Shown one piece after another: positions 281 to 47,733 of a stretch of DNA of 64,000 nt (within the stretch, counting starts at the first letter, position 1; each line of letters begins with the position of its first letter). The notes beneath the pieces are model-generated. The model did not search any database, had not been told where the DNA came from, and was given only the letters and a program-made list of their open reading frames with translations. The position numbers and the translations under genes are program-made. Source of the DNA: an uncultured Eubacteriales bacterium (GTDB lineage Bacteria; Bacillota; Clostridia; Christensenellales; CAG-917); contig URIX01000002.1 in NCBI GenBank assembly GCA_900547975.1, positions 17,879 through 81,878 of the forward strand, read 5' to 3'.

Positions 281-645
281 GGGGGTGTTCTGGATTCGAC
301 ATTCGGTCTGATGCGGGATAAGCACGTCGTAGGCTCGGCTACGTTAAAACGGAACGTTAAAATTAAACGCAAAAAACAATCAAAAGAGCTCCTCTATGGA
401 GTTCGCTCTTGCTGCATAATTTAAGTCGGCACGTCGACACGGGGTTTTCTGTTCCCTCGTCAATCGGCGTCAGAAAAACAGACAACGCAATCTGATTTCT
501 CGGTAGGGTTGTTGTCAATACGAGATTATCGAGGCAAGGTTTGTAGGTGAACCGAACTTAGAAAAATTTTAATCACCAACTAAACGTGTAGAAAGTGCCG
601 AGTACGGTCGGGTGGACCGGGGTTCAAATCCCCGCACTTCCACCA
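281..645 (+). ncRNA. ssrA: tmRNA (transfer-messenger RNA)
   Basis: 5' GGGGGTGTTCTGGATTCGAC and 3' GGACCGGGGTTCAAATCCCCGCACTTCCACCA form the tRNA-like domain. Internal tag frame 369-419 (GCA AAA ... GCT GCA TAA) encodes AKNNQKSSSMEFALAA. Confidence 0.93.
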
Positions 646-652
646 GAAATGC

Positions 653-680
653 AAAAACCGCGTATCTAACGCGGTTTTTT
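653..680 (+). terminator. rho-independent terminator of ssrA, repeated at 823-851 and 995-1022
   Basis: AAAAACCGCG-tatctaa-CGCGGTTTTTT hairpin followed by a T-run. Confidence 0.8.
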
Positions 681-698
681 CATTTAGTGGGAATGTGT

Positions 699-751
699 GG
701 GGATTATGCGATTTTGGCAAAATCGCATCACGGCAATGCCGTGTGAACCCC
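699..751 (+). other. split inverted T-arm module, unit 1
   Basis: GGGGATT, then hairpin ATGCGATTTT/ggc/AAAATCGCAT (706-728), then hairpin CACGGC/aat/GCCGTG (729-743), then TGAACCCC. With the hairpins removed the flanks rejoin to the exact reverse complement of the ssrA T-arm (619-633). Confidence 0.7.
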
Positions 752-869
752 TTTCGGCTGCACGCGATTGACCTATGGTAGCAATCGCTGTTGGGCAAAT
801 CCCGTACTTCCACCAGAAATGCAAAAAACCGCGTATCTAACGCGGTTTTTTCATTTGGTAGGAATGTGT

Positions 870-922
870 GGGGATTATGCGATTTTGGCAAAATCGCATC
901 ACGGCAATGCCGTGTGAACCCC
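870..922 (+). other. split inverted T-arm module, unit 2
   Basis: Same sequence and layout as 699-751, one repeat period downstream. Confidence 0.7.
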
Positions 923-1041
923 TCTCGGCTGCACGCGATTGACCTTTGGTAGCAATCGCTGTTGGACAAAACCCCGCACTTCCACCAGAAATGCAAAAAC
1001 CGAGTATCTAACGCGGTTTTTTCATTTAGTGGGAATGTGTG

Positions 1042-1088
1042 CGGGGATTGCACGATTTCATCGTGCCGTTGCGATGCAACCTGAACCG
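1042..1088 (+). other. split inverted T-arm module, unit 3 (diverged)
   Basis: CGGGGATT, then GCACGAT/ttc/ATCGTGC (1050-1066), then GTTGC/gat/GCAAC (1068-1080), then CTGAACCG. The layout matches units 1-2 but both stems have different sequences. Confidence 0.6.
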
Positions 1089-1113
1089 TGTTTGGCCAGA
1101 TTTTCTAATAAGT

Positions 1114-1141
1114 AAAAACCGCATTAGATGTGCGGTTTTTT
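1114..1141. terminator. bidirectional terminator closing the ssrA repeat array and sdaA
   Basis: AAAAACCGCA-ttagatg-TGCGGTTTTTT, A-run on one side and T-run on the other, between convergent transcription units. Confidence 0.7.
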
Positions 1142-1161
1142 GCTCGAAAACAGGTTGTTTG

Positions 1162-2692: not shown

Positions 2693-4519
2693 ATGGTCAG
2701 AAACGATTTGAGAAACATCGCAATCATCGCCCACGTCGACCACGGCAAAACCACGCTCGTGGACGGTATGCTCAAACAATCGGGTACTTTCAGAGAAAAT
2801 CAACAGGTTGCAACCTGCGTTATGGACTCAGGCGACCTCGAAAGAGAAAGAGGTATCACGATTCTTGCAAAAAATACGTCAATCCACTACAACGGCACGA
2901 AAATCAACATCATCGACACACCCGGACACGCCGATTTTTCGGGTGAGGTCGAACGTGTTTTGAAGATGGTCAACGGCGTCGTGCTTTTGGTCGACGCGCA
3001 AGAAGGTCCTATGCCTCAAACGCGTTTCGTCGTCGAAAAAGCACTCGCTTTGGGACTTAAAATAATCATCGTAGTCAACAAAATCGACAAACCCGACGCA
3101 AGACTTTCCGAAGTCGGCGACGAGGTGCTCGAACTCTTGCTCGACCTCGACGCGAGCGACGAGCAACTTCAAAGCCCCATTTTGTATTGCAGCGGCAAAC
3201 AAGCCACCGCAACTCGCGATTACCACGTTCCCGGCAAAGACCTCAAACCGCTTTTCGACACCATTATCGATTATATCCCCGCACCCGAAGGCGACGAGAA
3301 CGGCGAATTGCAACTTCTCGTGTCCGCAATCGACTACAACGATTACGTCGGTCGTATCGGCATAGGCAGAATCGAAAGAGGCAAGGTGGATATGGCAAAG
3401 GAAGTCGTGGTTTGCGACTATCACAGCGGCATTTCTCCGTACAAGAGCAAAATCGTCAACCTTTTCCAAATCGAAGGACTCAAACGCGTTCCCGTCGAAA
3501 ACGCTATGGTGGGCGACATCGTTTGTTTCAGCGGTATAGAAAACATCACAATCGGCAACACCATTTGCTCGCCTGCAAAAATCGAACCCGTGCCGTTCGT
3601 CAAAATCGGCGAACCCACTATCGAAATGAATTTCTGCGTCAACGACAGTCCGTTCGCGGGCAAGGAAGGCAAGTTTGTCACATCTCGTCACTTGCGCGAA
3701 AGATTGTTCAAGGAACTCTTGAAAGACGTTTCGTTGAGAGTGTACCAAACCGAAACCCCCGATACGTTCAAGGTTTGCGGCAGAGGCGAAATGCACCTTT
3801 CCATTCTCATCGAAACTATGCGCAGAGAAGGGTATGAGTTCGGCGTAAGCACCCCGAAGGTCATCTTCAAGGACATCGACGGCGTAAAGTGCGAGCCTAT
3901 GGAACAACTCTTTATCGACGTGCCGTCCGATTGCGTCGGTTCGGTTATGGAACGTATGGGTGTAAGAAAGGGCGAACTCGTCACGATGAATCCGCAAGGC
4001 AGCCGTATCCGTATGGAATTCAAAGTGCCTGCGCGCGGATTGTTCGGATTCAAAAACGAGTTTTTGACGGACACCAAAGGCGAGGGCGTTATGAACCAAC
4101 TCTTTGCAGGCTATGCGCCCTACAAAGGACCCATTCCTCGCAGATTCACAGGCTCGCTCGTCGCATACGAAACGGGTGAAGCCGCAACTTACGGACTTTT
4201 CAACGCGCAAGAAAGAGGCATTTTGTTCATCGACCCGCAAACTCCCGTTTACGAGGGTATGGTCGTCGGCATGTCGCCCAAGAACGAGGACATTCGCGTC
4301 AACGTCTGCAAGCGTAAACACGTCACCAATATGCGTGCCGCAGGTTCCGACGAAGCACTTCGCCTCAACACGCCTCGCAAATTCAGCCTCGAAGAAGCCA
4401 TCGAGTTCCTCAACGACGACGAAATGCTCGAAGTCACCCCCAAGAATATTCGCATAAGGAAGATTATTTTGTCGGGGGCCGAACGTCTTAAACTCGCCTA
4501 CGGCGGCAAAAACGCCTGA
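2693..4519 (+). CDS. typA: translational GTPase TypA/BipA
   Basis: [20 protein letters not shown]1 motif, [15 protein letters not shown]-like domain order, ~608 aa. Confidence 0.92.
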
Positions 4520-6596: not shown

Positions 6597-6766
6597 AAAG
6601 TTATCTCCTTTCGCACTCATCCGGATGATGAGCCGATAAATATTGTGTATAAATAATAGAATAACGGCGCAAAAAAGTCAAAGATAATCGTTATATAACA
6701 TAAATTAGGATATATTTACAAACCGTTCAAGCGGAAAGCGGATTGAAACGAAAAGCCATATTCGTC

Positions 6767-6805
6767 GAAAGCGGACAACGAAAGCGTACAACGAGAGCGG
6801 ACAAC
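6767..6805. repeat. 3 x 13-bp tandem repeat
   Basis: GAAAGCGGACAAC GAAAGCGTACAAC GAGAGCGGACAAC, between the Cys-rich gene and the glyQS promoter region. Confidence 0.8.
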
Positions 6806-6963
6806 GTAAACGAACGTAAGCGAGTCAAAACGGAACGTGCTTGTAAATCGGCAAGCGGAGCAAATCAAACGCGCCACCTCGTTTGAGATGACGCGTTTGC
6901 GACGTAGATACAAAAACATAACTTCGGGCAATTCGTGCTCACGTTATGCCCGCGCGACGTTTG

Positions 6964-7733: not shown

Positions 7734-7860
7734 ATGCTCGGCAAATGACAATATATTATGTTTGATTTCTTCAATAGCATATGAAAAAATAAGTTTATAT
7801 TTAGAATTGCAGTATGAAATTCAAATCTAAGTTATAAATAATAAACAATCAAAGGTATCA

Positions 7861-7887
7861 AAAAAAGACGAACGAAGTCGTCTTTTG
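7861..7887. terminator. hairpin terminator, one of three copies of the same hairpin
   Basis: AAAAAGACGAACGAAGTCGTCTTTT. The same hairpin occurs at 9040-9066 and, inverted, at 10417-10443. Confidence 0.6.
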
Positions 7888-7997
7888 TTGTATGCAAATA
7901 CCTATTTCGATACAATTTGCGTACACCCCATAAAAAGTGCGTACACCTTGTCAAAATTTGCGTACAGTTAAACGCACCGATAAATTGGAATTTGACG

Positions 7998-8480
7998 TTA
8001 TAATTTCAGTACTGCAATCAATTCTTTCCCATCCATATCTCCTGTTTCCTCAAATCCGAAAGAATGGTACAGGTGTTTGGCAATATCATTTTCGGGTTCA
8101 TATGACAGCCAACAGTACTCTGCTTTACCACAAGGCGATGAGTTTATGAAATCTAACGCCAAACTAAGTGCTTCTTTTCCATATCCCATGTTTTGGAATT
8201 TTCTGTCTATCATAAATCGCCAAAGATTATAATTACCAGAGGCTATTTGGGGGGCATCTTCCCAATAATCGTCTTTGTCAAAACCTATCATCAAAAAACC
8301 AATGGGAGTATCATCCTCATATATTCCAAAGGGATAGGCATAGCCATTTCCTGTTATTGCTGTATATGCTTCAATAATACTTACATCATTACTTGCAACA
8401 AAACCTTCTTGTTCTTTCGCTACTTTTAATTCGAGAATATCCCACACATTCTTTCCGTTAATTCTCTCTAATCGTAACAT
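7998..8480 (-). CDS. GNAT family N-acetyltransferase (diamine/spermidine acetyltransferase-like)
   Basis: The RFMIDRKFQNMGYGKEAL acetyl-CoA binding motif (Q/RxxGxG/A) sits in a 160-aa protein. Confidence 0.8.
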   Translation of the reverse strand: MLRLERINGKNVWDILELKVAKEQEGFVASNDVSIIEAYTAITGNGYAYPFGIYEDDTPIGFLMIGFDKDDYWEDAPQIASGNYNLWRFMIDRKFQNMGYGKEALSLALDFINSSPCGKAEYCWLSYEPENDIAKHLYHSFGFEETGDMDGKELIAVLKL

Positions 8481-8576
8481 ACTTTGCTCCTCACAAAATT
8501 CTTATTTATCGTTGAGTCTATTATAGCACAAATTTCGCATTTTTTCAATACATTCGCCTACCGTATAACGAAAAAA

Positions 8577-8630
8577 CTTTCGTTCCGTAGCAATATCTAT
8601 CGTTCCGTTGATAGACCTTTCGTTCCGTAG
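8577..8630. promoter_or_regulatory. three direct repeats TCGTTCCGT at an exact 20-bp period upstream of the GNAT gene
   Basis: cttTCGTTCCGTag at 8577, ctaTCGTTCCGTtg at 8597, cttTCGTTCCGTag at 8617. Confidence 0.45.
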
Positions 8631-8697: not shown

Positions 8698-8845
8698 TAA
8701 TGAAATCCTGCTTTGCAGGATGAAATCTTAGGTGTGCAACCTCAGATGAAATCAAATCCGCCTCAATTAACCCCGTGTTAGAGGGATTTCATCACAAGGT
8801 GATTTCATCCACGAAGTGGATTTATTCCGACGAAGGCGGATTTAG
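8698..8845. repeat. array of GATGAAATC / GATTTCATC 9-mers interleaved with mini-hairpins
   Basis: (A/G)ATGAAATC occurs 3 times (8699-8753), then GATTTCATC 2 times (8785-8810) plus degenerate GATTTAT and GATTTAG. AAATCCGCC (8753-8761) pairs with GGCGGATTT (8835-8843). Confidence 0.7.
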
Positions 8846-8847
8846 TT

Positions 8848-8889
8848 AAAAAAGACTGCAATTTTGTATCAAAATTGCAGTCTTTTTTT
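8848..8889. terminator. bidirectional terminator
   Basis: AAAAAAGACTGCAATTTT-gtatc-AAAATTGCAGTCTTTTTTT. Confidence 0.75.
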
Positions 8890-9072
8890 GGTGCGGATGA
8901 CAGGACTTGTAGCGAGAGAAACGAGCGTAATAGCGATTGTTGCGCAGTATGCGCCAATCGTGTCAGCTGCACAAGTGCAGGTTGCAAACATTGTTTGCCG
9001 ACAATTGAAAAATTGTCGCAAGTCCGTTGCCGTAACAAAAAAAAGACGAACGAAGTCGTCTTTTGTTGCGTG
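8889..9072 (-). repeat. stand-alone inverted copy of the element that follows tRNA-Leu
   Basis: Reverse complement matches 10414-10590 with only a few substitutions. It ends in CAAGTCCTGTCATCCGCACCA (8909-8889), a tRNA-Leu 3' end copy with one mismatch. Confidence 0.9.
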
Positions 9073-9184
9073 TGTACGGCAAAATCTCGTTTTTCGGGCG
9101 ATTTTCGAGAGTGTGTTGGACGATAAGTACTTTTTTGCGATTGTTATGAAGAGTGTGGTGGATGATAAGCATTGGTTGCTCTGA

Positions 9185-9652
9185 TTAATTTACAAATTCC
9201 AAAACGGTTTCATCTTCATTTATGCGGTACACAAACGGAGAATAGGCTTTTGCTATCTTTGTCCAAAGTTTTTTTGCTCCTACATTTTTCTCGTTGTATT
9301 TTATTTCCCATTTGCCATGATAGATTGATAAAATCAAATTAACTGCATCGATTGCATAATGATTTCTTCGGTAGGAAGGAAAAATCGTAAACTCTGCTAT
9401 CGTATAATCCGGATGATGTCCGATAGCGGAGTATGTATTCAACATAACAAAACCGACCATAATTTCATCATCGTAAATGAAAAAGGCTTTTCTCTCCGCA
9501 TCGGTAAAATACGCATCAAAATATTCGTAATGATAATTTCCTTGTTCGTCCATGTTGTCAGGATAGTACTTTGTCATCTCATACAAATATTTTTGATTTA
9601 TATTCCATAAAAGTTTGCGTTCTTCCGCTTTAACTTCTTGTAATCTGATCAT
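9185..9652 (-). CDS. GNAT family acetyltransferase
   Basis: 155 aa. FTIFPSYRRNHYAIDAV lies at the acetyl-CoA pocket position, and the overall length and pattern fit small GNAT proteins. Confidence 0.65.
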   Translation of the reverse strand: MIRLQEVKAEERKLLWNINQKYLYEMTKYYPDNMDEQGNYHYEYFDAYFTDAERKAFFIYDDEIMVGFVMLNTYSAIGHHPDYTIAEFTIFPSYRRNHYAIDAVNLILSIYHGKWEIKYNEKNVGAKKLWTKIAKAYSPFVYRINEDETVLEFVN

Positions 9653-9735
9653 CTTTATTCCATCGCGTTATTCAAATTTGTCTTTGGTATAATTTTAGCA
9701 TATTATGCGGTGCTTTTCAATCAAACGCATAGGTA

Positions 9736-9776
9736 TAAAAATATCGGTCTGTAAGAAAAGACTTACAGACCGATGC
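9736..9776 (-). terminator. terminator of the tRNA-Gly/tRNA-Lys unit
   Basis: ATCGGTCTGTAAG-tctttt-CTTACAGACCGAT followed by ATTTTT on the minus strand. Confidence 0.75.
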
Positions 9777-9779
9777 GTT

Positions 9780-9855
9780 TGGTGCATCCTCAGGGACTCG
9801 AACCCTGGACCCACTGATTAAGAGTCAGTTGCTCTACCAACTGAGCTAAGGATGC
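9780..9855 (-). tRNA. tRNA-Lys (anticodon CUU)
   Basis: Cloverleaf GCATCCT...AGGATGC-A-CCA, anticodon loop CT-CTT-AA, T-loop GGTTCGAGTCC. Confidence 0.93.
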
Positions 9856-9946
9856 ATATCTCGGCGACAATTACGCTTTATGCGGTCGTTGTCGCTCCCT
9901 AGATATTTTGAACGACCATTGCTGATCGTTCAATTCCGCTTGCGCG

Positions 9947-10104
9947 TGGAGCGGGAGACGGTGTGGTCGCTTTCGCGACAACCTTCGGTGCGAACCCTTG
10001 CGGGTCTGCGATTGCATCGCACTTCACTGTGTGAAGCCGAATCCCGTCAACCGATTGCTCGATTTTCAAAGATTCTTTTTCACTCACACTATCGTTGCTT
10101 CCGT
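9947..10104 (-). repeat. 158-bp insert downstream of tRNA-Gly(GCC), ending in a direct copy of the tRNA's last 15 nt
   Basis: TGGAGCGGGAGACGG at 9947-9961 repeats 10105-10119. Split inverted T-arm module at 10046-10001 (minus strand): CGGGATTCGG, CTTCAC/aca/GTGAAG, TGCGAT/gca/ATCGCA, GACCCG. Confidence 0.85.
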
Positions 10105-10179
10105 TGGAGCGGGAGACGGGATTCGGACCCGCGACTTTCACCTTGGCAAGGTGACACTCTACCACTGAGTCACTCCCGC
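10105..10179 (-). tRNA. tRNA-Gly (anticodon GCC)
   Basis: GCGGGAG...CTCCCGC-T-CCA, anticodon loop TT-GCC-AA. Confidence 0.93.
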
Positions 10180-10328
10180 AAGCACAAATTACTATATCAA
10201 ATCAATTTGCAAAAAGCAACAATTTTTTGCCATAAAGTTAAAAATATTTTATAAAATCAGCATATAACACTCTTAATTTTGTTTTTGCTTTACAGAAACC
10301 GAAATTATGCTATAATAATGATGTTTTT

Positions 10329-10413
10329 GCGGATGTGGTGAAATTGGCAGACACGCAAGATTTAGGTTCTTGTACTATATAGTGTGCAGGTTCAAGTCCT
10401 GTCATCCGTACCA
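10329..10413 (+). tRNA. tRNA-Leu (anticodon UAG), class II with long variable arm
   Basis: GCGGATG...CATCCGT-A-CCA, anticodon loop TT-TAG-GT, 85 nt. Confidence 0.92.
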
Positions 10414-10590
10414 ACAAAAGACGACTTCGTTCGTCTTTTTTTTGTTACGGCAACGGACTTGCGACAATTTTTCAATTGTCGGCAAACAATGTTTGCAACC
10501 TGCACTTGTGCAGCTGATGCGATTGGCACATACTGCGCAACAATCGCTATTACGCTCGTTTCTCTCGCTACAAGTCCAGTCATCCGTACC
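10414..10590 (+). repeat. 177-bp element downstream of tRNA-Leu, ending in a copy of the tRNA 3' end
   Basis: Terminator AAAAGACGACTTCGTTCGTCTTTTTTTT. Module GGACTT, CGACAATT/tttc/AATTGTCG, GCAAAC/aat/GTTTGC, AACCTG (10455-10502). CAAGTCCAGTCATCCGTACC (10571-10590) matches tRNA 10393-10412 at 19 of 20 positions. Confidence 0.88.
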
Positions 10591-10750
10591 CAAAAAGCCT
10601 CTAAGCAGTAGATGTTTAGCGGCTTTTTCATTTTTCGCTAAGAAAAACTGTTTATCTTTTGCCACAAAACAATAAAATCATTGATATTTTGAGCAAAAAA
10701 TTCCAAGAAAATAAAAAGCCAAACCGCCACCGGTGCGGATTGGTAAAGTG

Positions 10751-10924
10751 TGGTGGAGATAAGGGGATTCGTAGGAAGCGACCTGGACGCTTCCGTAATA
10801 GCGTCAGCGTCAGCCCGTAGTGGTTCGCACGGTGAAACCGTGGTGCGATTTTTGAAAAAATCGCGCAATCCACTTATTCCCCACAAAAAAAACAAGCCGA
10901 ACAGAGTTCGACTTGTGTTCTTTT
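10751..10924 (-). repeat. 174-bp insert downstream of tRNA-Ala, ending in a perfect 21-nt copy of the tRNA 3' end
   Basis: TGGTGGAGATAAGGGGATTCG at 10751-10771 equals 10925-10945. Terminator at about 10886-10920. Split inverted T-arm module at 10874-10819 (minus strand): AGTGGATT, two hairpins, CGAACCACT. Confidence 0.88.
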
Positions 10925-11000
10925 TGGTGGAGATAAGGGGATTCGAACCCCTGGCCTTCGCATTGCGAACGCGACGCTCTACCAACTGAGCCATATCCCC
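10925..11000 (-). tRNA. tRNA-Ala (anticodon CGC)
   Basis: GGGGATA...TATCTCC-A-CCA with the G3:U70 alanine identity pair, anticodon loop TT-CGC-AA. Confidence 0.92.
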
Positions 11001-11183
11001 ACATTCGCTTTTAGAAACATTCGATTTGTTCCTTGCTGTGTTATTATATCACATTATTTGATTTTGACAATTAATTTTTAACCTTTTTTTTGATATATTC
11101 TAAAAGGATTCGTGTGCTAACACATATAATACGGCTTCAAATGGATTTTGTTTGAATTTTTTTGGGAAAAATATAAAAAAGTA

Positions 11184-37977: not shown

Positions 37978-38099
37978 CAAAATAAAATTAATTCATCGCA
38001 ACTTTATTAAATCTCATTGTAAATCACAATTAAATTGTTTTGTAAAAAATAGAAAGTTTAGGGCTAAAAACGACCTAATTTCACCCTGATTTTTTCAAT

Positions 38100-38245
38100 T
38101 TGTCTGTTAGACTTGCCATACTCAAAGGCTTCAACCAATACTTCTCGGAAGAGTTGGCGCAGAAAGTGAAAATGGGCATGAGAGAAACAAGCCTTAAATG
38201 CTTGTATCAAGGCGGTGGTTTGCCGTACGGATATAACGAGGTCTT
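38100..38245 (+). pseudogene. large serine recombinase fragment (internal piece only)
   Basis: LAILKGFNQYFSEELAQKVKMGMRETSLK..GGGLPYGY parallels ILEGFNQYFSEELTQKVNRGLRESWLK of the opposite-strand pseudogene that it abuts. Confidence 0.6.
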
Positions 38246-39075
38246 CTATAAATTGCTTTTGTATCGGTTTTTTTGTTGCAGGCTATATTCTTTCGTGTTC
38301 TGGACAGGCAGGAATAGTAGTAGTGTATATCGCCTGTCATAGTCGTTCCGCTTATTCCGACCATTTTGTGCTTACAATCTCCGCAAATAAGTTTGCCGGA
38401 TAGGATGTAATCGTAAATCTCTTTCTTGCGACTAGGCGCACGCTTATTCTCTTTATGTACGGCGCAGACCTTTGCCCATAACTCGTCCGATATGAGTTTC
38501 GGAAATATGTTATCGTATTTCGTACCTTGACGTTCCACGACTCCGTTGTATTTTGTATTGCGCAAAACGTGATATATCAACGATACTCGTATTGGTTGTC
38601 CGTCACGATTTCTATATCCGCATTCTTTGAAATGCTTTTCTATTGCGTTTGCGGTATAGCCTTGTGCGCACTTGGTGAACATCTCGACGACGAGCGGCGC
38701 TTCTATGGGGTGGGGAACGTATTTTTTATCTATAATATCGTATCCGAAAACGCTGTGTCCGCCCGTTGCGTTGCCTTTGAGCCAACTTTCCCGAAGTCCG
38801 CGATTCACCTTTTGTGTGAGTTCTTCCGAGAAGTATTGGTTGAATCCTTCGAGTATCGTTTCCATCATTCGTCCTTCGGGTGTATCCGTAATGCGTTCCA
38901 TTGCGGACAAAAGTGCAACTCCGTTGTCTTGCAACGTCTTTTTATTGATAACGGATTCAACTTTATTTCTCACAAATCTGTCCAACTTGTAAACGATGAC
39001 GTAAACGTGAGCGAATAAACAAACAAGAACATCGTTGTGCGCACTTTGGACAAGTGTGAAATCGTGAGCGAACAC
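38194..39075 (-). pseudogene. large serine recombinase lacking the N-terminal catalytic Ser region and the C-terminus
   Basis: Starts inside the resolvase domain (VYKLDRFVRN), continues through the recombinase domain and zinc ribbon (LICGDCKHKM...YYYSCLSR...IACNKK), then degenerates. Confidence 0.7.
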
Positions 39076-39414
39076 AGTTCAAACCCTGTTGTGATATAAA
39101 CTACCGACAGCGTAGCATATATCCGTTTTAAAGCGTGAATGGGTCAAAAGATAGTTTGCGTGGTAAAAATATGTTTTTAATGGGTAAAAAGGTGTTGTGG
39201 ATGAGAGGGGGATGGGGTGTGTACGCCGAAAAGACAAAAGCAGATTTCGCAACTTGATATAAAAAAAGATAAAAATCTGCCTATGAAAAAGAGGACAAAA
39301 AATCGCATTGCCGATATGCGAGAAAAACGGGCCCGATTCGCCAAGCGGTTTAGCGCGAACGGCCCGTTCCGCACGGCTGCGATTTTGCCTTTTTAGGCGG
39401 TTTGTTTTTATACA

Positions 39415-39476
39415 AGGCGTATGCTTGTCTCGGCGAGGCGCAGCCGAGCCGACTTGTTCAAGACAAGCATACGCCT
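39415..39476. other. perfect 16-bp-stem palindrome with a nested hairpin
   Basis: AGGCGTATGCTTGTCT (39415-39430) pairs with AGACAAGCATACGCCT (39461-39476). The loop contains CTCGGC/GCCGAG. Confidence 0.7.
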
Positions 39477-39694
39477 AAGTGCCCGAAAACATTGTTTTCT
39501 TTCGTCTTACGCTGCAAATATTGACTATTCGGGACAATGATGCTAAAATATATTAGACATAATGAAAATATTCTAGTATTTAGAGATTGTTTCAAATATC
39601 ACAACAAAATTTGTAGTATTTAGAAAACAATCTTGCATCCGAACGCAAGGTAAAAGTGTTTGGCAATAAAAAGAGCAATTGCGTGTTATAGATA

Positions 39695-40126
39695 ATGACT
39701 AAAACCCAAGAAGAAATTACGCGAAACATGCGTAGCAATAAATGCAGAGATACAAAACCGGAGTTATTGTTGCGCAGCGAACTATGGAAACGCGGATTAC
39801 GATATAGGAAAAACTATAAAAAATTAGTCGGAAAACCCGATATCGTATTTGTAGGAAAGAAAATCGCGATTTTCGTAGACGGAAAAATGTGGCACGGATA
39901 CGACTGGGAAAATCAGAAAAACGATTTCAAATCGCATCGAGATTTTTGGATTCCGAAAATAGAACGCAACATCGCTCGTGACAAGTTCGTAAATCAACAA
40001 TTGGAAAACGACGGGTGGACTGTGCTGAGATTTTGGGATTTCGAAATAAAAAAACACCTTTCGGATTGTGCAGATAAAATAGAAAACATATACAACGAAA
40101 AAAAGATCATCGGAACGGAGATATAA
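39695..40126 (+). CDS. vsr: very short patch repair endonuclease (Vsr)
   Basis: TKPELLLRSELWKRGLRYRKN...GKPDIVFVGKKIAIFVDGKMWHG...WTVLRFWDFEI. Confidence 0.88.
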   Translation: MTKTQEEITRNMRSNKCRDTKPELLLRSELWKRGLRYRKNYKKLVGKPDIVFVGKKIAIFVDGKMWHGYDWENQKNDFKSHRDFWIPKIERNIARDKFVNQQLENDGWTVLRFWDFEIKKHLSDCADKIENIYNEKKIIGTEI

Positions 40127-40127
40127 G

Positions 40128-41135
40128 ATGTTAAAAAGTATTGATTTATTCGCAGGTATCGGCGGCATTCGGCTCGGGTTCGAAAATGCCTTCGGCGACG
40201 AATTGAAAACGGTATTCGTCAGCGAATGGGACGAATACGCTCAAAAAACTTATAAGGCGAATTTCCACGACGATTTCGAAATCGCCGGCGATATAACGAA
40301 GATAAAGGAAACGGATATTCCCGACTTCGATATATGTCTTGCGGGATTCCCTTGTCAGGCATTCAGTTTGGCAGGACAGCGCAAGGGCTTTAAAGACGAT
40401 TATAAAGGAATGTCTCGCGGCACGTTATTTTTCGACGTGGCGAGAATTTGCGCCGAGAAAAAACCGAAAGTAATTTTCTGCGAAAACGTAAAAGGTTTGA
40501 CGATACACGACAAAGGAAGAACATTCGAAATTATTACCGAAACACTCAAAGAAATCGGTTATACTCCGTTCGAACAAATATTAAACAGCCGTAATTTCGG
40601 CGTTCCGCAAAACAGAGAACGCATTTATATCGTTGCATTCAGAAACGATATAGCCCCGAAAGAATTTATCTTCCCCGCGAAAACCGACGATACGAAACGT
40701 ATTCGCGATATTATGGAAGAAAATCCCGTTCCCGCGAAATATTATCTCAGCACCTGCTATATGGACACTCTTATCAGACATAAAGAACGTCACGCGGCGA
40801 AAGGACACGGTTTCGGATATGAAATTCGAGATCTCGACGACGTTTCGGGCGCAATTGTATGCGGCGGTATGGGCAGAGAAAGAAATTTGATTATAGATAA
40901 AAGACAGACGAATTTAACGCCTACTACCCACATTAAGGGTGAAATCAATAAAGACGGCATTCGCAAAATGACTCCGAGAGAATGGGCAAGACTGCAAGGG
41001 TTTCCGGACGATTACAAATTCGTTTTGGCGGACGTTCATCTTTACAAGCAATTCGGAAACAGCGTAACCGTTCCCGTAATACAAGCAATAGCGGAAAAAA
41101 TCAAAGAGGTACTCGATAAAAATGGCAGAGATTAA
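40128..41135 (+). CDS. DNA (cytosine-5)-methyltransferase, copy 1
   Basis: Motif I DLFAGIGG, IV GFPCQAFS, VI ENVKGL, X QFGNSVTVPV. Confidence 0.92.
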   Translation: MLKSIDLFAGIGGIRLGFENAFGDELKTVFVSEWDEYAQKTYKANFHDDFEIAGDITKIKETDIPDFDICLAGFPCQAFSLAGQRKGFKDDYKGMSRGTLFFDVARICAEKKPKVIFCENVKGLTIHDKGRTFEIITETLKEIGYTPFEQILNSRNFGVPQNRERIYIVAFRNDIAPKEFIFPAKTDDTKRIRDIMEENPVPAKYYLSTCYMDTLIRHKERHAAKGHGFGYEIRDLDDVSGAIVCGGMGRERNLIIDKRQTNLTPTTHIKGEINKDGIRKMTPREWARLQGFPDDYKFVLADVHLYKQFGNSVTVPVIQAIAEKIKEVLDKNGRD

Positions 41136-42288
41136 AGGGAAAAATAAGGGCGAATGGTCCGAAATGTACATTTTCTTCAAATTAATGTCCGATAGAAAAG
41201 TTTACGTCGCGGACAAAGATATGAATAAACTGAAAGACGTATTCTTAAATATCGTCAGTATTATTCGTGAAGAAGTTGCGGGTAAAGAATATCGTTATTT
41301 TACGGGCGATAAAGTGGTTATCACGCTTAACGGCGAAACCGTAATGACTTTGGATTCTTCATTGTTTACGGAAAAAGCCGCACGCGTTTGGAAAATGATA
41401 ACCGAAAATAAGGGCAATACTACTTTTACCGACGACGAAATCAGAGAATTTCTCGAGTCGATTTTCATTCACAATATATCGGCTCCCGCACAAAAGAAAA
41501 ACGATTATTTCGGCGGCACGAAAGATATCGTTCTCGATACGATAGATTATCGCTCCGGCGTAAGTCAAATAATGGGCTTTTCCTGTAAATCGGATATCGA
41601 TGCCGCATCGACGCTATTCAATGCAAGCGGAGATAATACTAATTTCGAGTACGAACTGGTCGGAAATATAAACGACGATGTAATGAACGAATTTAATTCG
41701 TTATTTAACGAAGTGATCCGGAAAGGCGTAGTTTGTCACGACGTGGCAACCGGCAGCCGTATGAATTATTTGAAGTCCTGTGGCATCGATGTAAAATTCG
41801 TAAATCCCGTAAAGGAAACCGCAAGACAAAATTTGATACGTTGCGGCGGTTTGGAAACTCCTGCCATTGTTGCGGAGATGTTGAAATATTACTACTACGA
41901 CAAATCGGGAGCGGATACATCTCTCGATGAAGCGATTAAACATCTTGCCGAATCCGATCCCGCAGGGTATTCTTTCGGCGAGTTATACGATACATATCAT
42001 CTGAAAATAGCAAATCTTTTGTATTCCATGTTCACGGGCTTGCGTTTTTCAAAACCGTGGAACGGCAAATCCGATGTGAGCGGCGGATATATCGTTGTTA
42101 AACGCGACGGCGACGTCGTTGCTTTCCACTCCTGCATTGCCGACGAATTCAAGGATTTTCTTGTGGACAAATTAAAGTTCGAAGCACCGTCTTGCAGTCG
42201 TCACGATTATATGTCGATTTATAAAAAAGACGACGGCAAATACTATCTGAAATTTGCCCTGCAATTCAGATTTAAATTGAAAAAATAA
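41122..42288 (+). CDS. type II restriction endonuclease, HpaII-family-like (tentative)
   Basis: N-terminus KGKNKGEWSEMYIFFKLMSDRKVYV resembles what I recall of HpaII-family enzymes. It overlaps the upstream methyltransferase by 14 nt and sits in a vsr-M-R arrangement. Confidence 0.55.
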   Translation: MAEIKGKNKGEWSEMYIFFKLMSDRKVYVADKDMNKLKDVFLNIVSIIREEVAGKEYRYFTGDKVVITLNGETVMTLDSSLFTEKAARVWKMITENKGNTTFTDDEIREFLESIFIHNISAPAQKKNDYFGGTKDIVLDTIDYRSGVSQIMGFSCKSDIDAASTLFNASGDNTNFEYELVGNINDDVMNEFNSLFNEVIRKGVVCHDVATGSRMNYLKSCGIDVKFVNPVKETARQNLIRCGGLETPAIVAEMLKYYYYDKSGADTSLDEAIKHLAESDPAGYSFGELYDTYHLKIANLLYSMFTGLRFSKPWNGKSDVSGGYIVVKRDGDVVAFHSCIADEFKDFLVDKLKFEAPSCSRHDYMSIYKKDDGKYYLKFALQFRFKLKK

Positions 42289-43223
42289 TGAGAGTATGCA
42301 GTTTGTTTTGCGGAATCGGCGGAATAGACCTTGCCTTTACGCAAGCCGGGCATGAAATCGTATGGGCTAACGATATCGATAAATATGCCTGCATGACCTA
42401 TCGGCACAATTTCCCCGAGTCGGTTTTGATCGAAGGCGATATTCGCGCGATCGATAAACACGATATCCCCGATTTCGATATACTTGCGGCAGGGTTTCCT
42501 TGCCAACCGTTTTCGGTTTGCGGAAAACAAAAAGGCTTTTCGGACGAACGCGGAAATTTATTCTTCGAAATCGGAAAAGTAATCGATGCGAAACATCCGT
42601 CTATCGTGTTTTTAGAGAATGTGGCAAATCTTATCGAACACGACCACGGTAAAACGTTCAACGTTATTCATAACGAACTTGCGTGGCGCGGATATTTTAT
42701 TCGCTACCTGATTGCAGATGCTTGCGATTACGGCATTCCGCAACACAGAATGAGAACCTATATCGTCGCATTTTCGGACAGAACCGCCTGCGAAAATTTT
42801 ACGTTTCCGGAAAAAGTTCTGCTCGAAAAACGAATAACAGATATTATCGACGTAACCGTAAAAGCTGACGACAAATATTACTATTCACCCGTTTCTGCAA
42901 AGTATCAACGTTTAAGTCGATATATTACCGACGAAAAGCAGTTGTATCGATTTGCGGATTACGGTGTCCAATCGGGCAAAGACGGCATATCGTTTACGCT
43001 CAAAGCGAATATGGGAACGTATTACGACCGAGTGCCGATTATAAAGGATAATTTCGGCATACGAAATATCACGTTGACGGAATGCCTTGCTTTACAAGGT
43101 TTCCCGAAAAGCTTCTCTTTTCCTCTTGCCGTTCCAGAGAGAGAACAATACAAACAAACTGGAAATACTGTGTGCGTAGGAATAATAGAAAAAATAATTA
43201 GGTGTATTACAAAAGATGAATAA
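42288..43223 (+). CDS. DNA (cytosine-5)-methyltransferase, copy 2
   Basis: SLFCGIGG, GFPCQPFS, ENVANL, QTGNTVCV. The start overlaps the upstream stop (TAATG). Confidence 0.9.
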   Translation: MRVCSLFCGIGGIDLAFTQAGHEIVWANDIDKYACMTYRHNFPESVLIEGDIRAIDKHDIPDFDILAAGFPCQPFSVCGKQKGFSDERGNLFFEIGKVIDAKHPSIVFLENVANLIEHDHGKTFNVIHNELAWRGYFIRYLIADACDYGIPQHRMRTYIVAFSDRTACENFTFPEKVLLEKRITDIIDVTVKADDKYYYSPVSAKYQRLSRYITDEKQLYRFADYGVQSGKDGISFTLKANMGTYYDRVPIIKDNFGIRNITLTECLALQGFPKSFSFPLAVPEREQYKQTGNTVCVGIIEKIIRCITKDE

Positions 43224-43788
43224 AATATTTAAATTGCCGACAAAATCCGACTTAAAGAGTCGTACATCTACTATCAGTAATGCTTTTGCAATAGCTATTA
43301 CTCCGTATATTTATCCTTCATTAAATGAAATTGAACACTTTTTAAAGGAATTACATCTTGAACAAGGACAATGTGCATATTGTTTAGGCAAAGCAAACGC
43401 AATGGATCATGTAAAACCTTTAGTTACAGGTGGACTACCAACCGGATATATTACTGAAATTCGAAATTTAGTTCCTTGCTGTTCAGCTTGTAACAGTGCA
43501 AAAGGTGCACAGGATTTTAGAGCTTGGTACAAAAGCGAAAAAAATATTAAGCGATTGCACTCTGAGGGATTAACTGATACTGAAATTAATGAGCGTTTTG
43601 ATATCGTTTCACGATATATTGATAAAATTCCTGCGCCAATTGATTACAAAACAATACTTGGCGATAACTTGTGGAATGAATTTCTACATAGAAAAGAAGA
43701 AATGGTGCGTCTTCTAAAAGAAGATCAATTGTTTTGCGATGAATTAAGTGCTATAATTAAAAACAAAATCGATTCGGAGAATAATTGA
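43216..43788 (+). CDS. HNH endonuclease (candidate restriction partner of methyltransferase 2)
   Basis: CAYCLGKANAMDHVKPLVTGG...NLVPCCSACNSAKG. 8-nt overlap with the upstream gene. Confidence 0.8.
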   Translation: MNKIFKLPTKSDLKSRTSTISNAFAIAITPYIYPSLNEIEHFLKELHLEQGQCAYCLGKANAMDHVKPLVTGGLPTGYITEIRNLVPCCSACNSAKGAQDFRAWYKSEKNIKRLHSEGLTDTEINERFDIVSRYIDKIPAPIDYKTILGDNLWNEFLHRKEEMVRLLKEDQLFCDELSAIIKNKIDSENN

Positions 43789-43789
43789 T

Positions 43790-44851
43790 ATGCCTTTTGA
43801 AGTAATAGATTTGTTTTGCGGAGTCGGAGGGCTTACATGCGGAATGCGACAGGCAGGCTTTCGTGTTGTAGCCGGATTCGACAATGATCAAACATGTGAA
43901 TATACATATAGCCACAATAATCATACGGAATTCCATTGTAGAAATATCAAAGAAGTAACAGGAGCGGAAATAAACGGTTGTTATTCGTCCGGTGCTCAGA
44001 AAATCCTTGTAGGTTGCGCGCCATGTCAACCGTTCTCGACAATGAGCTATAAGCGTTTTATTGCATCACCAAGAGAAAATGATATGAAATATGATTTATT
44101 ATCGGAATTCGGAAGACTAATAAAGGACGTTCAGCCTGTCATTGTTGCTATGGAAAACGTGCCCGAGTTAAGGAATACAGGTGTTTTTCAAAGCTTTTTA
44201 GAAACTTTGAGAGATAACGGATATTTTACCGACGGCGGTCGTGTTGTATATTGCCCCGATTATGGCATTCCGCAAAACAGGCACAGATTTATTCTATTAG
44301 CATCAAGAATCGGAGAGATTACACTTCTCCCTCCTACTCACAAGCGAAAAGAAGTAACGGTTCGTCCGTTTATTGAAAAATTACCTCCCATTGCAGCCGG
44401 AGAAATGTATGAATTCGATAAACTCCACCGCACGGCAAGTCTTTCCGAAATAAATCTAAAACGTATTAAAGCGTCTGTTCCCGGTGGAACTTGGAAAGAT
44501 TGGCCCGAAGAATTAAGATGCGCTTGTCACAAAAAAGATTCGGGACAAACATATACGTCTGTTTACGGTAGGATGTCTTGGGATAAAATCGGACCGACTA
44601 TGACAACACAGTTTTTCTGTTACGGCACAGGACGATACGGTCATCCGGAACAAGATAGAGCTCTATCCTTACGCGAAGGAGCTTTGTTGCAAACGTTTCC
44701 CCGAGATTACGAATTCTTCCCGCCAGACGTCACTGATTATTGCATGAGAGACGTGGCACGGCACATAGGGAATGCTGTTCCTGTTCGCTTGGGCGAAATC
44801 ATAGGATGCTCAATAAATAAACATTTAGAAAAATATACGGAGGTGCACTAA
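43790..44851 (+). CDS. DNA (cytosine-5)-methyltransferase, copy 3
   Basis: DLFCGVGG, GCAPCQPFS, MENVPEL, HIGNAVPV. Confidence 0.9.
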   Translation: MPFEVIDLFCGVGGLTCGMRQAGFRVVAGFDNDQTCEYTYSHNNHTEFHCRNIKEVTGAEINGCYSSGAQKILVGCAPCQPFSTMSYKRFIASPRENDMKYDLLSEFGRLIKDVQPVIVAMENVPELRNTGVFQSFLETLRDNGYFTDGGRVVYCPDYGIPQNRHRFILLASRIGEITLLPPTHKRKEVTVRPFIEKLPPIAAGEMYEFDKLHRTASLSEINLKRIKASVPGGTWKDWPEELRCACHKKDSGQTYTSVYGRMSWDKIGPTMTTQFFCYGTGRYGHPEQDRALSLREGALLQTFPRDYEFFPPDVTDYCMRDVARHIGNAVPVRLGEIIGCSINKHLEKYTEVH

Positions 44852-46737
44852 TGCCAATAGACTTTAAATTAAAAGTTAGTCCGAGAATGCTTGAATTGCT
44901 CAGTAAAGATTTGTATACAAATATGTATTTCGTATTGGCTGAGTTAATCGCCAATTCATATGATGCAGATGCTGAAAATGTATATGTGTATATTGATGAT
45001 GATGAAATACGGGTAGAAGATGATGGTAACGGTATGAGCCCGGACAATCTAAACGATAAGTATTTATTGGTTGGCGGGGAATCCAGAAATTCCGAAGATA
45101 ATGCACGCACATCTAGGAAGAATCGTTTAAAAATGGGAAGGAAAGGAGTTGGTAAATTGTCGGCGCTTTCTATTTCAAACGGTTTTAAACTAGTTACTGT
45201 TTGTGATGGATATACCATTGGATTGTTTATTCCGAATCGTATAGAACATGATGATGAATCGTTAAGAGTTTTGAGCCAAAACGAGTTTTCATTAAAAAGA
45301 ATTACGAATCATGGAACGGCTGTTATAATGGAGTCGCCGAAGGTGGCAATTCCGAAGCTACAAGATACTGTATTAAAGAATCTTGCAAAAATATTTCCAA
45401 ATGATATAGAAGATTTTAAAATACATGTTGTGTTTAAAGGCGAAGAGAAGATTTTGATTCCCGATGAGAAAGACGTGATTATGCGGTTGGCTTCGTTTAT
45501 TTCTATAGGGGACGAAAAAAGATATTTGGCTGAATCGTTGCCAACAAATGAGAAAAATTTACAAAAGGATCATTTGGATGCTTATGAAGAAACTATAGAA
45601 ATGTATGATAGTAACAATGTGCTTAAAGAAATTACGGTGCGCATATATGGCTGGATTGGTACTTACAAAACTACTCGCGGGATGAAGAGGGAAATTAATG
45701 AGTTTTCAGACAACTATTTGGCAATTTTCGCACACAATAAAATGGGATTGCGAAATATATTACCAATAATCGGAAAAAACCGTGTTTATGAGAGTTATAT
45801 TGTTGGGAATTTGTATATAGATGCCTTTGAAGCTGCTAATTTCCCAGACATGGCAGGAACAAACCGTCAAGGTTATAATGAAAACGATCCCAGGTGGATT
45901 ACAGCATTAAAATATATAAGAGAAATAACGGATAGAATTGTAAAACTGCATGAACAGTTTGCCATTGCCGAGAAAATTGAAAAAGACACGGAAAAAGAAG
46001 CGAAAAAAGAAGCCGATGAGTTAGCTTTGAAAGAACGTCTTGACCGCGCTACCAAAAATATAACAGAAAATATAGCGCGTAAAATAAATGATAATACGTC
46101 TCCTGAACAGATCAAGCAAGCGGTTTCATCGGAAATTGAAGCCATGAAACCCATTCTCGGATTTAAGTCTATAGTGGATGCGAATAAAAAGAAAATAATG
46201 ATAAGCCAAACATGGAAAGATAAAATTGTATCCGATGTAATTTATCAAATGCTTCTATTTAATGGCGTACCCAAAGAGGACATCATATATTCAAATGGAC
46301 CCGATCCGGAAACGAACTTACCTGAACGAGATATTTATGGTTATCTACAGAAATTCTTTATTCACAGTGCATCCACCGAAATGATATATGTGCTGTTTGT
46401 AACAAGTAAGAATGTTTTGAATGTTGAAGAAGATAACCCTTCTGCGAGTTGGGGCGTTTTAATGGAAATAGGTGCGGCATGGGTTACGAAAAAAGATCAC
46501 TGGATTTTTAATATAGACAATTTCAAGCCCGAGCAGCCGCTTAATATTGAAGATAAATGGGTCGCAATTTATACGATAGATGATGAAGCTGGAAACAAAA
46601 TTTTATCTCTAACAGAGGCTATGGCAAATAGCTTTTGCAATAAAATAATTGCAACCTGTTCCGCATGCGGATATACCGCAAAAGCTTTTGAGAATAATAA
46701 AAAGTATTTGGTAGATAACTTTGTAGCGATTTGTTAA
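44851..46737 (+). CDS. GHKL (HATPase_c_3 / MORC-like) ATPase with coiled-coil linker and TIR-like C-terminal domain
   Basis: Bergerat-fold motifs ELIANSYDA, DDGNGM, GRKGVGKLS. Lys/Glu-rich helix at about residues 370-420. C-terminus has KIMISQTWKDK...IIYSN...VLFVTSKN...SASWGVLMEIGAAW. The start overlaps the methyltransferase 3 stop (TAATG). Confidence 0.75.
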   Translation: MPIDFKLKVSPRMLELLSKDLYTNMYFVLAELIANSYDADAENVYVYIDDDEIRVEDDGNGMSPDNLNDKYLLVGGESRNSEDNARTSRKNRLKMGRKGVGKLSALSISNGFKLVTVCDGYTIGLFIPNRIEHDDESLRVLSQNEFSLKRITNHGTAVIMESPKVAIPKLQDTVLKNLAKIFPNDIEDFKIHVVFKGEEKILIPDEKDVIMRLASFISIGDEKRYLAESLPTNEKNLQKDHLDAYEETIEMYDSNNVLKEITVRIYGWIGTYKTTRGMKREINEFSDNYLAIFAHNKMGLRNILPIIGKNRVYESYIVGNLYIDAFEAANFPDMAGTNRQGYNENDPRWITALKYIREITDRIVKLHEQFAIAEKIEKDTEKEAKKEADELALKERLDRATKNITENIARKINDNTSPEQIKQAVSSEIEAMKPILGFKSIVDANKKKIMISQTWKDKIVSDVIYQMLLFNGVPKEDIIYSNGPDPETNLPERDIYGYLQKFFIHSASTEMIYVLFVTSKNVLNVEEDNPSASWGVLMEIGAAWVTKKDHWIFNIDNFKPEQPLNIEDKWVAIYTIDDEAGNKILSLTEAMANSFCNKIIATCSACGYTAKAFENNKKYLVDNFVAIC

Positions 46738-46820
46738 AAACGACAAAGTGTAAAAAATAGGAATGGCATTTTGATCTATGCAATTTTTTGGCATTTGGCT
46801 GCAACAGTATAGCACAAAAA

Positions 46821-47670: not shown

Positions 47671-47733
47671 GGTTATTTTTTTATAATCTAATTGAATCGC
47701 TAACGGAATATGGCGCTTCAAGGAGTATAAAAA

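Follow-up and report, generated by a model that had tools for sequence, protein, structure and literature searches.

The window, by which we mean the whole 64-kb stretch of DNA analysed here, carries on its minus strand a tRNA-Ala(CGC) gene whose last 21 nucleotides recur downstream of it. On the plus strand, 10751-10771 and 10925-10945 both read TGGTGGAGATAAGGGGATTCG, a 21/21 match between copies 174 nt apart that, with ~400 possible offsets, would be expected by chance at about 1e-10 (~400 x 4^-21). On the tRNA strand the copied stretch runs from C56 in the T-loop through CCA, and the exact copy claimed in the initial annotation is thereby borne out. The sequence from just past the CCA of the gene to the end of this copy, described here as the tail, forms a 174-nt unit that is recognized both by the repeat and by HMM matches (left HMM, 10809-10919, E=2e-13; right HMM, 10751-10806, E=9e-7). 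The unit holds no open reading frame, and ORFs called across units (e.g. 10638-10994) were rejected as spurious. From the gene outwards, the locus comprises:

10925-11000, minus strand: tRNA-Ala(CGC), the host gene (ARAGORN; Rfam, 72.5 bits)
10751-10924, minus strand: the 174-nt unit
10882-10924, minus strand: spacer and intrinsic terminator hairpin (stem 10892-10916) with a T-run
10867-10884, minus strand: 'anti' GTGGGGAATAAGTGGATT, an imperfect inverted copy of the T-loop, T-stem 3' strand and acceptor 3' strand
10843-10866, minus strand: hairpin H1 GCGCGATTTTTTCAAAAATCGCAC
10828-10842, minus strand: hairpin H2 CACGGTTTCACCGTG
10814-10827, minus strand: H3 region CGAACCACTACGGG, made of the inverted T-stem 5' strand plus TTCG (CGAACC..), a loop and a direct GGG
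10794-10814, minus strand: the Ala copy of the family-wide motif, GCTGACGCTGACGCTATTACG (CTGAYGC ... GCTATTACG)
10772-10794, minus strand: hairpin H5 GGAAGCGTCCAGGTCGCTTCC and the conserved CTA abutting the junction
10751-10771, minus strand: tail, the direct 21-nt copy of C56 through CCA
10707-10750, minus strand: ancestral downstream flank and terminator (CACTTTACCAATCCGCACCGGTGGCGGTTTGG CTTTTT)

The terminator of the unit is predicted to end transcription of tRNA-Ala. The anti, which retains the G3.U70-type wobble of the gene, can pair either with the real 3' end across this terminator or with the tail.

The initial annotation had also proposed, by eye, that the body of this insert is homologous to a repeat unit behind the tmRNA gene, and formal alignment upholds this homology. 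The Ala and tmRNA units align over ~110 nt with a Smith-Waterman score of 53 (z = 15.5), far above the 16.1 +/- 2.4 (maximum 30) obtained from 1000 dinucleotide shuffles, and a repeat search links them over 49 nt at 71% complementarity. Within the window, 6/10 tRNA/tmRNA genes are followed by such units, with a copy of their own 3' end 140-230 nt downstream, which supports the claim that a single family sits behind unrelated RNA genes and that every copy bears the 3' end of its own host. CCA is genomically encoded in all ten tRNA-type genes of the window. The features at the other loci are:

281-645, plus strand: tmRNA gene, the second host (ARAGORN, Rfam)
646-987, plus strand: two tmRNA units, 646-815 and 816-987 (~171 nt)
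988-1145, plus strand: tmRNA basal partial unit, comprising a terminator, anti, H1, H2, CTGAACC.. and a second terminator
8889-9066, minus strand: second Leu-type unit, inverted and 97% identical to the first, with no tRNA-Leu directly before it
9947-10104, minus strand: tRNA-Gly(GCC) unit (gene 10105-10179), alike in plan, with a different conserved core
10414-10591, plus strand: tRNA-Leu(TAG) unit (gene 10329-10413; tail 10571-10591)
about 50540-50622, minus strand: partial third tRNA-His unit
50623-51073, minus strand: two 225/226-nt units of tRNA-His(GTG) (gene 51074-51150)
51272-51412, minus strand: tRNA-Gly(TCC) unit (gene 51413-51486), with a decayed tail (3 mismatches in 18)

The four further hosts in this window (Leu(TAG), Gly(GCC), His(GTG) and Gly(TCC)), the inverted copies of the target within the units, and the wide occurrence of the family outside the window go beyond what had previously been described for this DNA.

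Across the family, units span 120-230 bp and follow a single order on the tRNA strand. The left part comprises a spacer, intrinsic terminator, anti, H1, H2, an inverted copy of the T-stem 5' side and a short loop; the right part comprises a direct copy of the T-stem 5' side, CTGAYGC, an optional hairpin H4, GCTATTACG, H5, CTA and the tail from C56 to CCA. Each unit therefore contains four target-derived segments (anti, inverted and direct T-stem 5' sides, and direct tail), together with two or three hairpins beyond the anti; among units, H1 to H3 keep a constant form and vary in sequence. The inverted T-stem 5'-side copies read CGAACC.. in the Ala unit, TGAACCCCG in tmRNA, AACCTGCAC in Leu and AACTTGTGAC in Val, and the direct copy matches 7/7 nt in the Leu, Val and Lys(ctt) units. 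The arrangement GCTATTACG-hairpin-CTA lies right before the repeat in 116 matches, and the repeat starts at C56.

These segments correspond to the unit's own host. The inverted T-stem-side copy scores 7.18/10 against its cognate gene and 5.91/10 against non-cognate genes, and the direct copy 4.60/7 versus 2.37/7, with scores of >=6 in 40% versus 3% of comparisons; the direct copy moreover tracks allele differences (CATGCAG, CGTGCAG, TGTGCAG). For the anti, an ungapped search is too crude and duplex energies were scored instead: the anti-to-tail duplex reaches -18.2 kcal/mol with the cognate and -13.7 with non-cognate partners. Folded as DNA, the hairpins formed by 3' end, terminator and anti have z = -5.9 (Ala, 81 nt) and z = -9.3 (tmRNA, 83 nt). 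For whole units the mean folding z is about -3.4, whichever strand is taken. Pairing in H4 and H5 is maintained by compensatory changes in 9/10 pairs. The MAFFT/RNAalifold consensus contains helices of the right half only, since left-half sequences cannot be aligned. A second pairing is also predicted, of the anti with the tail and of the inverted with the direct T-stem copy; this fold would restore the final ~33 bp of the tRNA gene in double-stranded form, with a break precisely at the T-loop, where H1/H2 intervene on one side and the conserved core on the other. The antisense strand had appeared to be the better folder (26/30), a preference we rejected since its shuffles also fold better (-41.6 versus -35.8 kcal/mol). 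Because z-scores (-3.30 antisense to the tRNA versus -3.48) and the counts of isolated mismatches within helices (5 G.T versus 5 A.C) are equal, the structure is not assignable to one strand.

To catalogue the family, we scanned metagenomes with the motif CTGAYGC-N-GCTATTACG-N-CTACRARTC, which returned 105 stretches where ~5 are expected by chance. The 80 contig names listed among these matches all look like gut-metagenome assemblies. In almost every match the bases past the CTA equal the 3' end of an upstream gene, situated 120-380 nt away, and the hosts comprise Leu(cag, tag, caa, gag), Ala(cgc, ggc), Arg(ccg), Lys(ttt, ctt), Val, Ser and tmRNA. A downstream 3'-end copy is found in 52/87 distinct tRNA/tmRNA contexts and an upstream copy in 0/87, in a sample that combines the window with motif-selected loci and is biased by the selecting motif. 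The window itself belongs to an uncultured Clostridia member of the human gut, whose nearest GTDB relatives are Christensenella sp. UBA7571/UBA7588 (BipA 97% identical); in relatives with BipA identities of 87-90%, units follow tRNA-Pro and tRNA-Ser, and one Ser locus holds three identical 166-nt units in tandem. No such units were seen in more distant Oscillospiraceae loci, among the few tRNAs sampled there. The family is specific to a clade of uncultured human-gut Clostridia. Rfam 15 has no family for the unit on either strand, with only the tRNA and tmRNA reaching gathering scores and nothing credible at E <= 5 over 8700-11100. The Ala unit has no blastn match in phage and plasmid collections. 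A phage origin of the core was considered and rejected, GGGCTGACGCT..GCTATTACG yielding in IMG/VR one chance match, in a coding region. The literature searched offers no described equivalent, only general work on islands.

Close strains differ in the number of units they carry. At the tmRNA locus, full units number zero (L001, L005), one (L006, L003, L004), two (the window) or at least three (L002), in strains whose neighboring proteins are identical; both tmRNA units at 646-987 are missing from L001 and L005, and the basal partial unit is present even there. Two unit types are combined in these arrays, as mosaics. Between L001 and L005, which lack full units, the T-loop sequence also differs, and the T-loop and terminator variants of L001 recur at the most distal tmRNA copy of the window. 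These zero-copy alleles are not assembly collapse; differences between one and two copies (His, Ala) could partly be so. In two tRNA-Arg(CCG) loci (L181, L196), the functional 3' end CGAATCCGTTTGGGTGCGCCA is perfectly complementary to the anti of the unit, GCACCCAAACGGATTC, and the distal tail represents the other allele, CAAGTCCGCCTGGGTGTACCA, so that these tRNA-Arg genes are chimeric. Among units whose two copies differ by >=3 nt, the anti fits the proximal end in 14/19, the distal in 3/19 and both equally in 2/19, L188 being one of the distal cases; the repeat that belongs to the unit is accordingly not always the same one. Other rearrangements include a homologous inversion between inverted units (L011) and a tail abutting its own reverse complement (L165). 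Overall, the strain polymorphism and the chimeras at tRNA-Arg indicate a site-specific insertion in which a new 3' end arrives and the old one is displaced.

The Ala locus itself is less variable. Its unit is present in 4/4 strain contigs that span tRNA-Ala (L007-L009, L011), with neither an empty site nor a difference in copy number found among them. Because the unit is fixed in these contigs, we infer its mobility from sister loci; its two 21-nt copies are identical and hence carry no allele signal as to which end came with the unit. The flank past the tail is unlike the flank past the tRNA at Ala, as it is at Leu and Gly. Moreover, the distal Ala flank, CAC[T/A]TTTACCAATCCGCACCGG, also lies directly past the tail in L133, L158 and L176, where a 5-9 kb island plus a unit sits between tRNA-Ala and the tail. 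No circular or excised form of a unit was observed.

No recombinase is encoded in, or consistently beside, the small units, and a crude motif scan of their flanks revealed no tyrosine recombinase. Large serine recombinases of about 510 aa (Resolvase + Recombinase + Zn_ribbon_recom) occur, however, in 12 of the ~105 loci. In 8/12 of these the recombinase gene stops immediately ahead of the final 7-8 nt of a tRNA, which are followed by the unit's own spacer and terminator. We had considered these genes as parts of the adjacent units, a view rejected by these junctions, which therefore mark islands in their own right, integrated at the very 3' terminus of a tRNA or tail copy. Their cargo includes restriction-modification (defence-type) and other accessory genes; two small cargo proteins (97 aa, 146 aa) have no Pfam match. 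A remnant recombinase gene lies in the window at 38194-39075, and Phage_integrase fragments occur in L097 and L103. We also collected 7879 independent homologues of the recombinase (E <= 1e-30), sampled at four identity levels. In all integrated homologues that were examined, a prophage-like element ends with the recombinase gene, which abuts tRNA-Thr, tRNA-Ser(tga or gct), tRNA-Leu(cag) or tmRNA. Two of the sampled recombinase loci (L216, L219) have no tRNA gene nearby; the attP of L216, a phage-type context, carries 23 nt, from CCA to T-loop, of the tmRNA at which its twin L213 sits integrated, and contains no unit-like modules. Unit modules were likewise absent from 80 IMG/VR recombinase loci, in which the tRNA-end regex also matched nothing, so that this absence is uninformative. 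A homology between the unit terminator and the one supplied by serine-recombinase prophages (L221) was considered and set aside as too weak (score 21 versus 12.2 +/- 2.1, shuffle maximum 23). A double-stranded serine-integrase attP would show dyad symmetry, and none exists between the sequence left of the junction (H5 + CTA) and the right half. A parent element with matching ends was not found in the 105 loci, IMG/VR, phages or plasmids. Large serine recombinases are nevertheless the leading suspects for building these arrays, and putative candidates for moving the small units.

These data are best accommodated by the insertion of a miniature, non-autonomous module through site-specific recombination at the T-loop, a reading to which we assign a probability of roughly 55%. 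A gene-less module would insert between T55 and C56 of the tRNA-Ala T-loop, bringing a replacement 3' end (C56 to CCA) together with its own terminator, anti and core; the tRNA would stay intact because the module supplies both 3' end and terminator. The last 21 nt of tRNA-Ala (10925-10945) would thus derive from the insert, and the original 3' end and terminator would have been displaced 174 nt downstream, where the former survives as the tail (10751-10771). Since integration would regenerate an intact target, insertions could repeat and tandem arrays build up, and tails and tRNA ends could then double as landing sites for kilobase-scale islands with large serine recombinases. The small units would be moved by a recombinase acting in trans, most likely a large serine recombinase, and the self-complementary, target-mimicking fold may matter for the recombination. 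The model predicts that an empty tRNA-Ala site would read ...TCTCCACCA/CACTTTACC (also given as ...CCCCTTATCTCCACCA/CACTTTACCAATCC), and a circle or joined junction ...GCTTCCTA/CGAATCC...CCA/AAAAGAAC (also given as ...GGTCGCTTCCTA/CGAATCCCCTTATCTCCACCA/AAAAGAACACAAG). That such insertion explains the locus better than local slippage, as the initial annotation had argued, agrees with the differing flanks past the tail, the distal flank kept beside kilobase islands, and the strain-variable tmRNA arrays.

The co-varying target-mimic fold is left unexplained by an ordinary double-stranded attP, and suggests either a substrate that recombines in folded form, as attC and CTXphi attP do, or a separate RNA/DNA function. 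Integron attC and CTXphi attP(+) are folded single-stranded sites, bulged hairpins of ~80-130 nt whose stem rebuilds a duplex recombination site; crossover takes place at the base of an arm, a short core is repeated at array boundaries, and CTX and IMEX elements lack a recombinase of their own. A more specific and rather doubtful proposal along these lines is that units are self-contained, enzyme-less and retargetable recombination substrates that mimic their target. A single strand or cruciform would rebuild the last ~33 bp of the host gene, opened at the T-loop by the conserved hairpins, a host or trans-acting recombinase would treat the folded unit as the partner of the real gene, and a new tRNA host would need only the re-templating of the four short target-derived segments. 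The units resemble attC and CTXphi attP in this possible working only, and not in membership: their junction core is the T-loop (CRARTC), with no GTTRRRY or dif core, no IntI/Xer link and no strand bias.

The same structural evidence could instead reflect a unit that is itself a selected structured nucleic acid, either a small RNA from one or other strand or a cis-acting DNA structure, with the repeats as a by-product. In its small-RNA version, a closing stem resembling a tRNA minihelix would be combined with an anti-tRNA segment. The secondary structure is indeed strong, conserved and co-varying, and the anti keeps matching the functional 3' end while the tail decays (for Leu(gag), -30 to -33 versus -15 to -26 kcal/mol); the wobble retained in the Ala anti and a weak promoter-like site, TTGCCA-18-GATATT, facing the unit from downstream point the same way. 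A strong terminator nevertheless stands between the tRNA and the remainder of the unit, the search for a good promoter was negative, neither strand matches Rfam or is preferred, and presence and copy number vary among close strains, which would be odd for a needed RNA. We consider this reading unlikely. Random deletion could alternatively have reduced large prophages or islands, integrated by tyrosine or serine integrases, to their attachment arms. A target gene with a displaced fragment is the classic mark of an island (PMC4383910), large islands occupy the same sites in other strains, and remnant recombinase genes are present. Random deletions would not, however, yield one 120-230-nt plan with the same core and co-varying hairpins across genes and strains, and the related phage attP of L216 lacks these modules, just as the Ala unit finds no counterpart in phage and plasmid collections; we regard such an origin as distinctly unlikely.

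Enzyme-free replication template switching at hairpins, of the tandem-inversion-duplication type, followed by unequal crossing-over between the 21-nt repeats, would account for a real 3' end followed first by an inverted and then by a direct copy, the palindromes being centred on the loops of the terminator and of H3. The L165 tail abutting its own reverse complement, the identical tandem copies (Ser x3) and the homologous inversion of L011 would also follow. This scheme is at odds with the CTGAYGC..GCTATTACG..CTA core and hairpin plan recurring behind >12 different genes, each time with the gene's own target copies; the shared core must therefore have spread between loci, and does not reflect independent local accidents. 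The chimeric Arg 3' ends, and flanks past the tail that differ from those past the tRNA (Ala, Leu, Gly), are likewise contrary to simple triplication, and we hold the scheme to be improbable. The templated copying from the host RNA 3' end that the initial annotation had offered as an alternative finds no support. Under such a reverse-transcription or RNA-templated origin, the tRNA 3' end would prime or template the copying and the product would be inserted; copies stop exactly at CCA, and the anti resembles a primer-binding site for the tRNA 3' end. Yet CCA is encoded in all ten genes, so that its presence in the copy is uninformative on RNA. DNA left of the T-loop, including variable-region bases, is copied in both orientations, the anti contains bulges and is thus not a perfect copy, and about 1 Mb of flanking sequence showed no reverse transcriptase. 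This origin is scarcely credible.

If site-specific insertion at the T-loop is correct, the kind of system is a known one, namely tRNA-gene-targeting integrative elements, with the serine-recombinase ssrA islands and gene-less, cis-mobilizable members as its closest forms. The ssrA islands of Dehalococcoides are 10-30 kb, gene-bearing and confined to tmRNA; they involve the large serine recombinase DsiB and a 20-bp repeat from the mid T-loop, and form tandem arrays in which some members lack an integration module (McMurdie et al. 2011, PMC3146451). The gut units share with them a ~20-nt repeat from the mid T-loop, a conserved short motif just upstream of each repeat, downstream tandem arrays, array members without an integration module, and serine recombinases of ~510-540 aa set against a regenerated 3' end (here in the separate elements L213, L217 and L221). 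Unlike those islands, the units are 120-230 bp, gene-free, found at >12 tRNA species plus tmRNA, and built from inverted target copies and a multi-hairpin core; the recombinases lie not within units but in separate elements of the same arrays and at other tRNAs. More broadly, an intact gene with a displaced 3' fragment is the signature by which Islander recognizes islands in tRNA and tmRNA genes (PMC4383910), and it is present here as a downstream 3' fragment in direct orientation, 21/21 nt. As in tRNA-gene islands (Williams 2002; PMC4383910), including tycheposons (bioRxiv 10.1101/2020.12.28.424599), the split gene would be restored by the 3' fragment of the element, the displaced fragment would mark the far end and newcomers would push older elements outward, and remnants and partial tRNAs accumulate. 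Such islands are by definition kilobase-sized and carry an integrase of their own, usually a tyrosine recombinase; the units lack both features.

Gene-less elements have precedents of other kinds. The CIMEs of streptococcal ICEs, as far as the work cited in PMC3146451 describes them, are several kb long and recognisable as deletion derivatives of a known ICE; on that account the units are like them in having attachment-site-type repeats on both sides, no recombination or transfer genes, and tandem placement with autonomous elements (accretion), and differ in that no parent element with matching ends was found. The units also recall MITEs and REP, Correia and RPE elements, being small, non-coding, hairpin-rich and multi-copy with terminal inverted sequences. 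In contrast to MITEs, however, their inverted segments copy the target and so change from locus to locus, no transposase duplication accounts for the 21-nt repeat (the L181 copies are different alleles), and insertion is restricted to one position of tRNA-type genes. Tandem inversion duplication fits the order of the target copies. The flank beyond the third copy is a different one, and the units contain a foreign conserved core. Relative to the literature searched, what is new is the combination of 120-230 bp size, absence of genes, many tRNA species, and copies of the element's own target in both orientations around a core.

In gut metagenome bins, these units have the practical effect of breaking assemblies, causing inversions (L011), leaving pseudo-tRNA fragments and producing spurious ORF calls across the repeats. 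For an architecture that copies its target in both orientations and is predicted to fold into a target mimic, we found no described counterpart; it offers a handle on how such elements change target; if the target-mimic idea were true, they would represent a class of mini-elements able to seed integration hot spots at any tRNA gene. If mobile, the modules could also provide serine-integrase engineering with compact attachment sites addressed to tRNA genes. Prophages and islands classically land in tRNA and tmRNA genes, and in these Clostridia such sites are occupied by gene-free structured modules that would regenerate their target. Together with serine recombinases that target tRNA ends, the modules would build arrays that gather restriction-modification and accessory genes and, if mobile, they would be the smallest known members of the tRNA-gene-targeting integrative class.

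Between the two inverted Leu-type units of the window, the stretch has opposite orientations in the window and in L011, one of the loci compared with it. The flipped stretch holds tRNA-Lys, tRNA-Gly and tRNA-Leu together with a GNAT gene, and the difference is an inversion polymorphism. The two copies, 97% identical to each other, lie as follows in the window:

8884-9068, minus strand: Leu-type unit copy, 185 nt, inverted partner of 10412-10596
10412-10596, plus strand: Leu-type unit copy, 185 nt, inverted partner of 8884-9068

The 31-nt terminator of the Leu unit is found again, standing alone, at 7860-7890, and the GNAT gene (7998-8480) therefore lies between two direct terminator copies. 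A further conserved sequence, ACACTCTCGAAAATCGCCCGAAAAACGAGATTTTGCCGTACACACG, contains an internal hairpin and occurs at 9069-9120 (minus strand), in L151 and in L153; in units at the far end of cargo, it comes ahead of the terminator. On the upstream side of the GNAT gene, three direct repeats of 20-21 nt resembling GAAAAAACTTTCGTTCCGTAG occupy 8570-8630. Another three repeats, resembling CGAAAGCGGACAA and with a 13-nt spacing, lie at 6766-6815. Two weak matches to the Rfam Gut-1 RNA (29.6 and 31.7 bits, against a gathering score of 50), mutually inverted, were also detected just past the inverted Leu unit:

8700-8757, plus strand: weak Gut-1 RNA match
8781-8848, minus strand: weak Gut-1 RNA match

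At least 11 units, behind different tRNAs, share a conserved sequence of ~75 nt after GCTGAC, with the pattern CGCAAGCGAAGAGAGA.GCAAGCGC...GCATTTGCGGA.ATCGAGCGCAGCGGACATAGC.AAC (L003, L004, L117, L122, L123, L129, L132, L151, L154 and L182). Small cargo genes come next, and in L117 the cargo is flanked on both sides by direct repeats of GCTGTGCAGCTGAC. The arrangement resembles an additional insertion site or element nested within the units. In L165 (oriented ~4156-4190), two arrays meet head to head: a Leu(cag) tail, CAAGTCCTGTTGTCCGC, adjoins its own reverse complement to form a perfect palindrome of 34 nt.

Homologues of the large serine recombinase of L131 form a large family of ~510-aa proteins (7879 matches at E <= 1e-30). 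Among those sampled (L211-L221), the integrated copies lie against tRNA-Thr, tRNA-Ser(tga, gct), tRNA-Leu(cag) or tmRNA genes, at the 3' end of the gene. The enzyme P0053 is found at two different tRNA-Ser genes, which have only CTCCGCCA in common. The window itself carries a truncated large serine recombinase, within an island that further encodes three DNA methylases, RE_HpaII, Vsr, a HATPase_c_3 protein and HTH proteins:

38000-50275: genomic island adjoining tRNA-Lys(TTT)
38194-39075, minus strand: truncated large serine recombinase

In other strains, this tRNA-Lys(TTT) site features Phage_integrase fragments adjoining the tRNA, or wholly different content, e.g. a Cas9 locus in L098/L099.

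The 3' end of tRNA-Arg(CCG) occurs as two alleles, CGAATCCGTTTGGGTGCGCCA and CAAGTCCGCCTGGGTGTACCA (L181, L196, L125, L146), both joined to an identical 5' half; one allele produces two G.U pairs in the T-stem, the other G1.U72. These tRNA-Arg(CCG) genes look chimeric, with 3' ends apparently brought by the elements.
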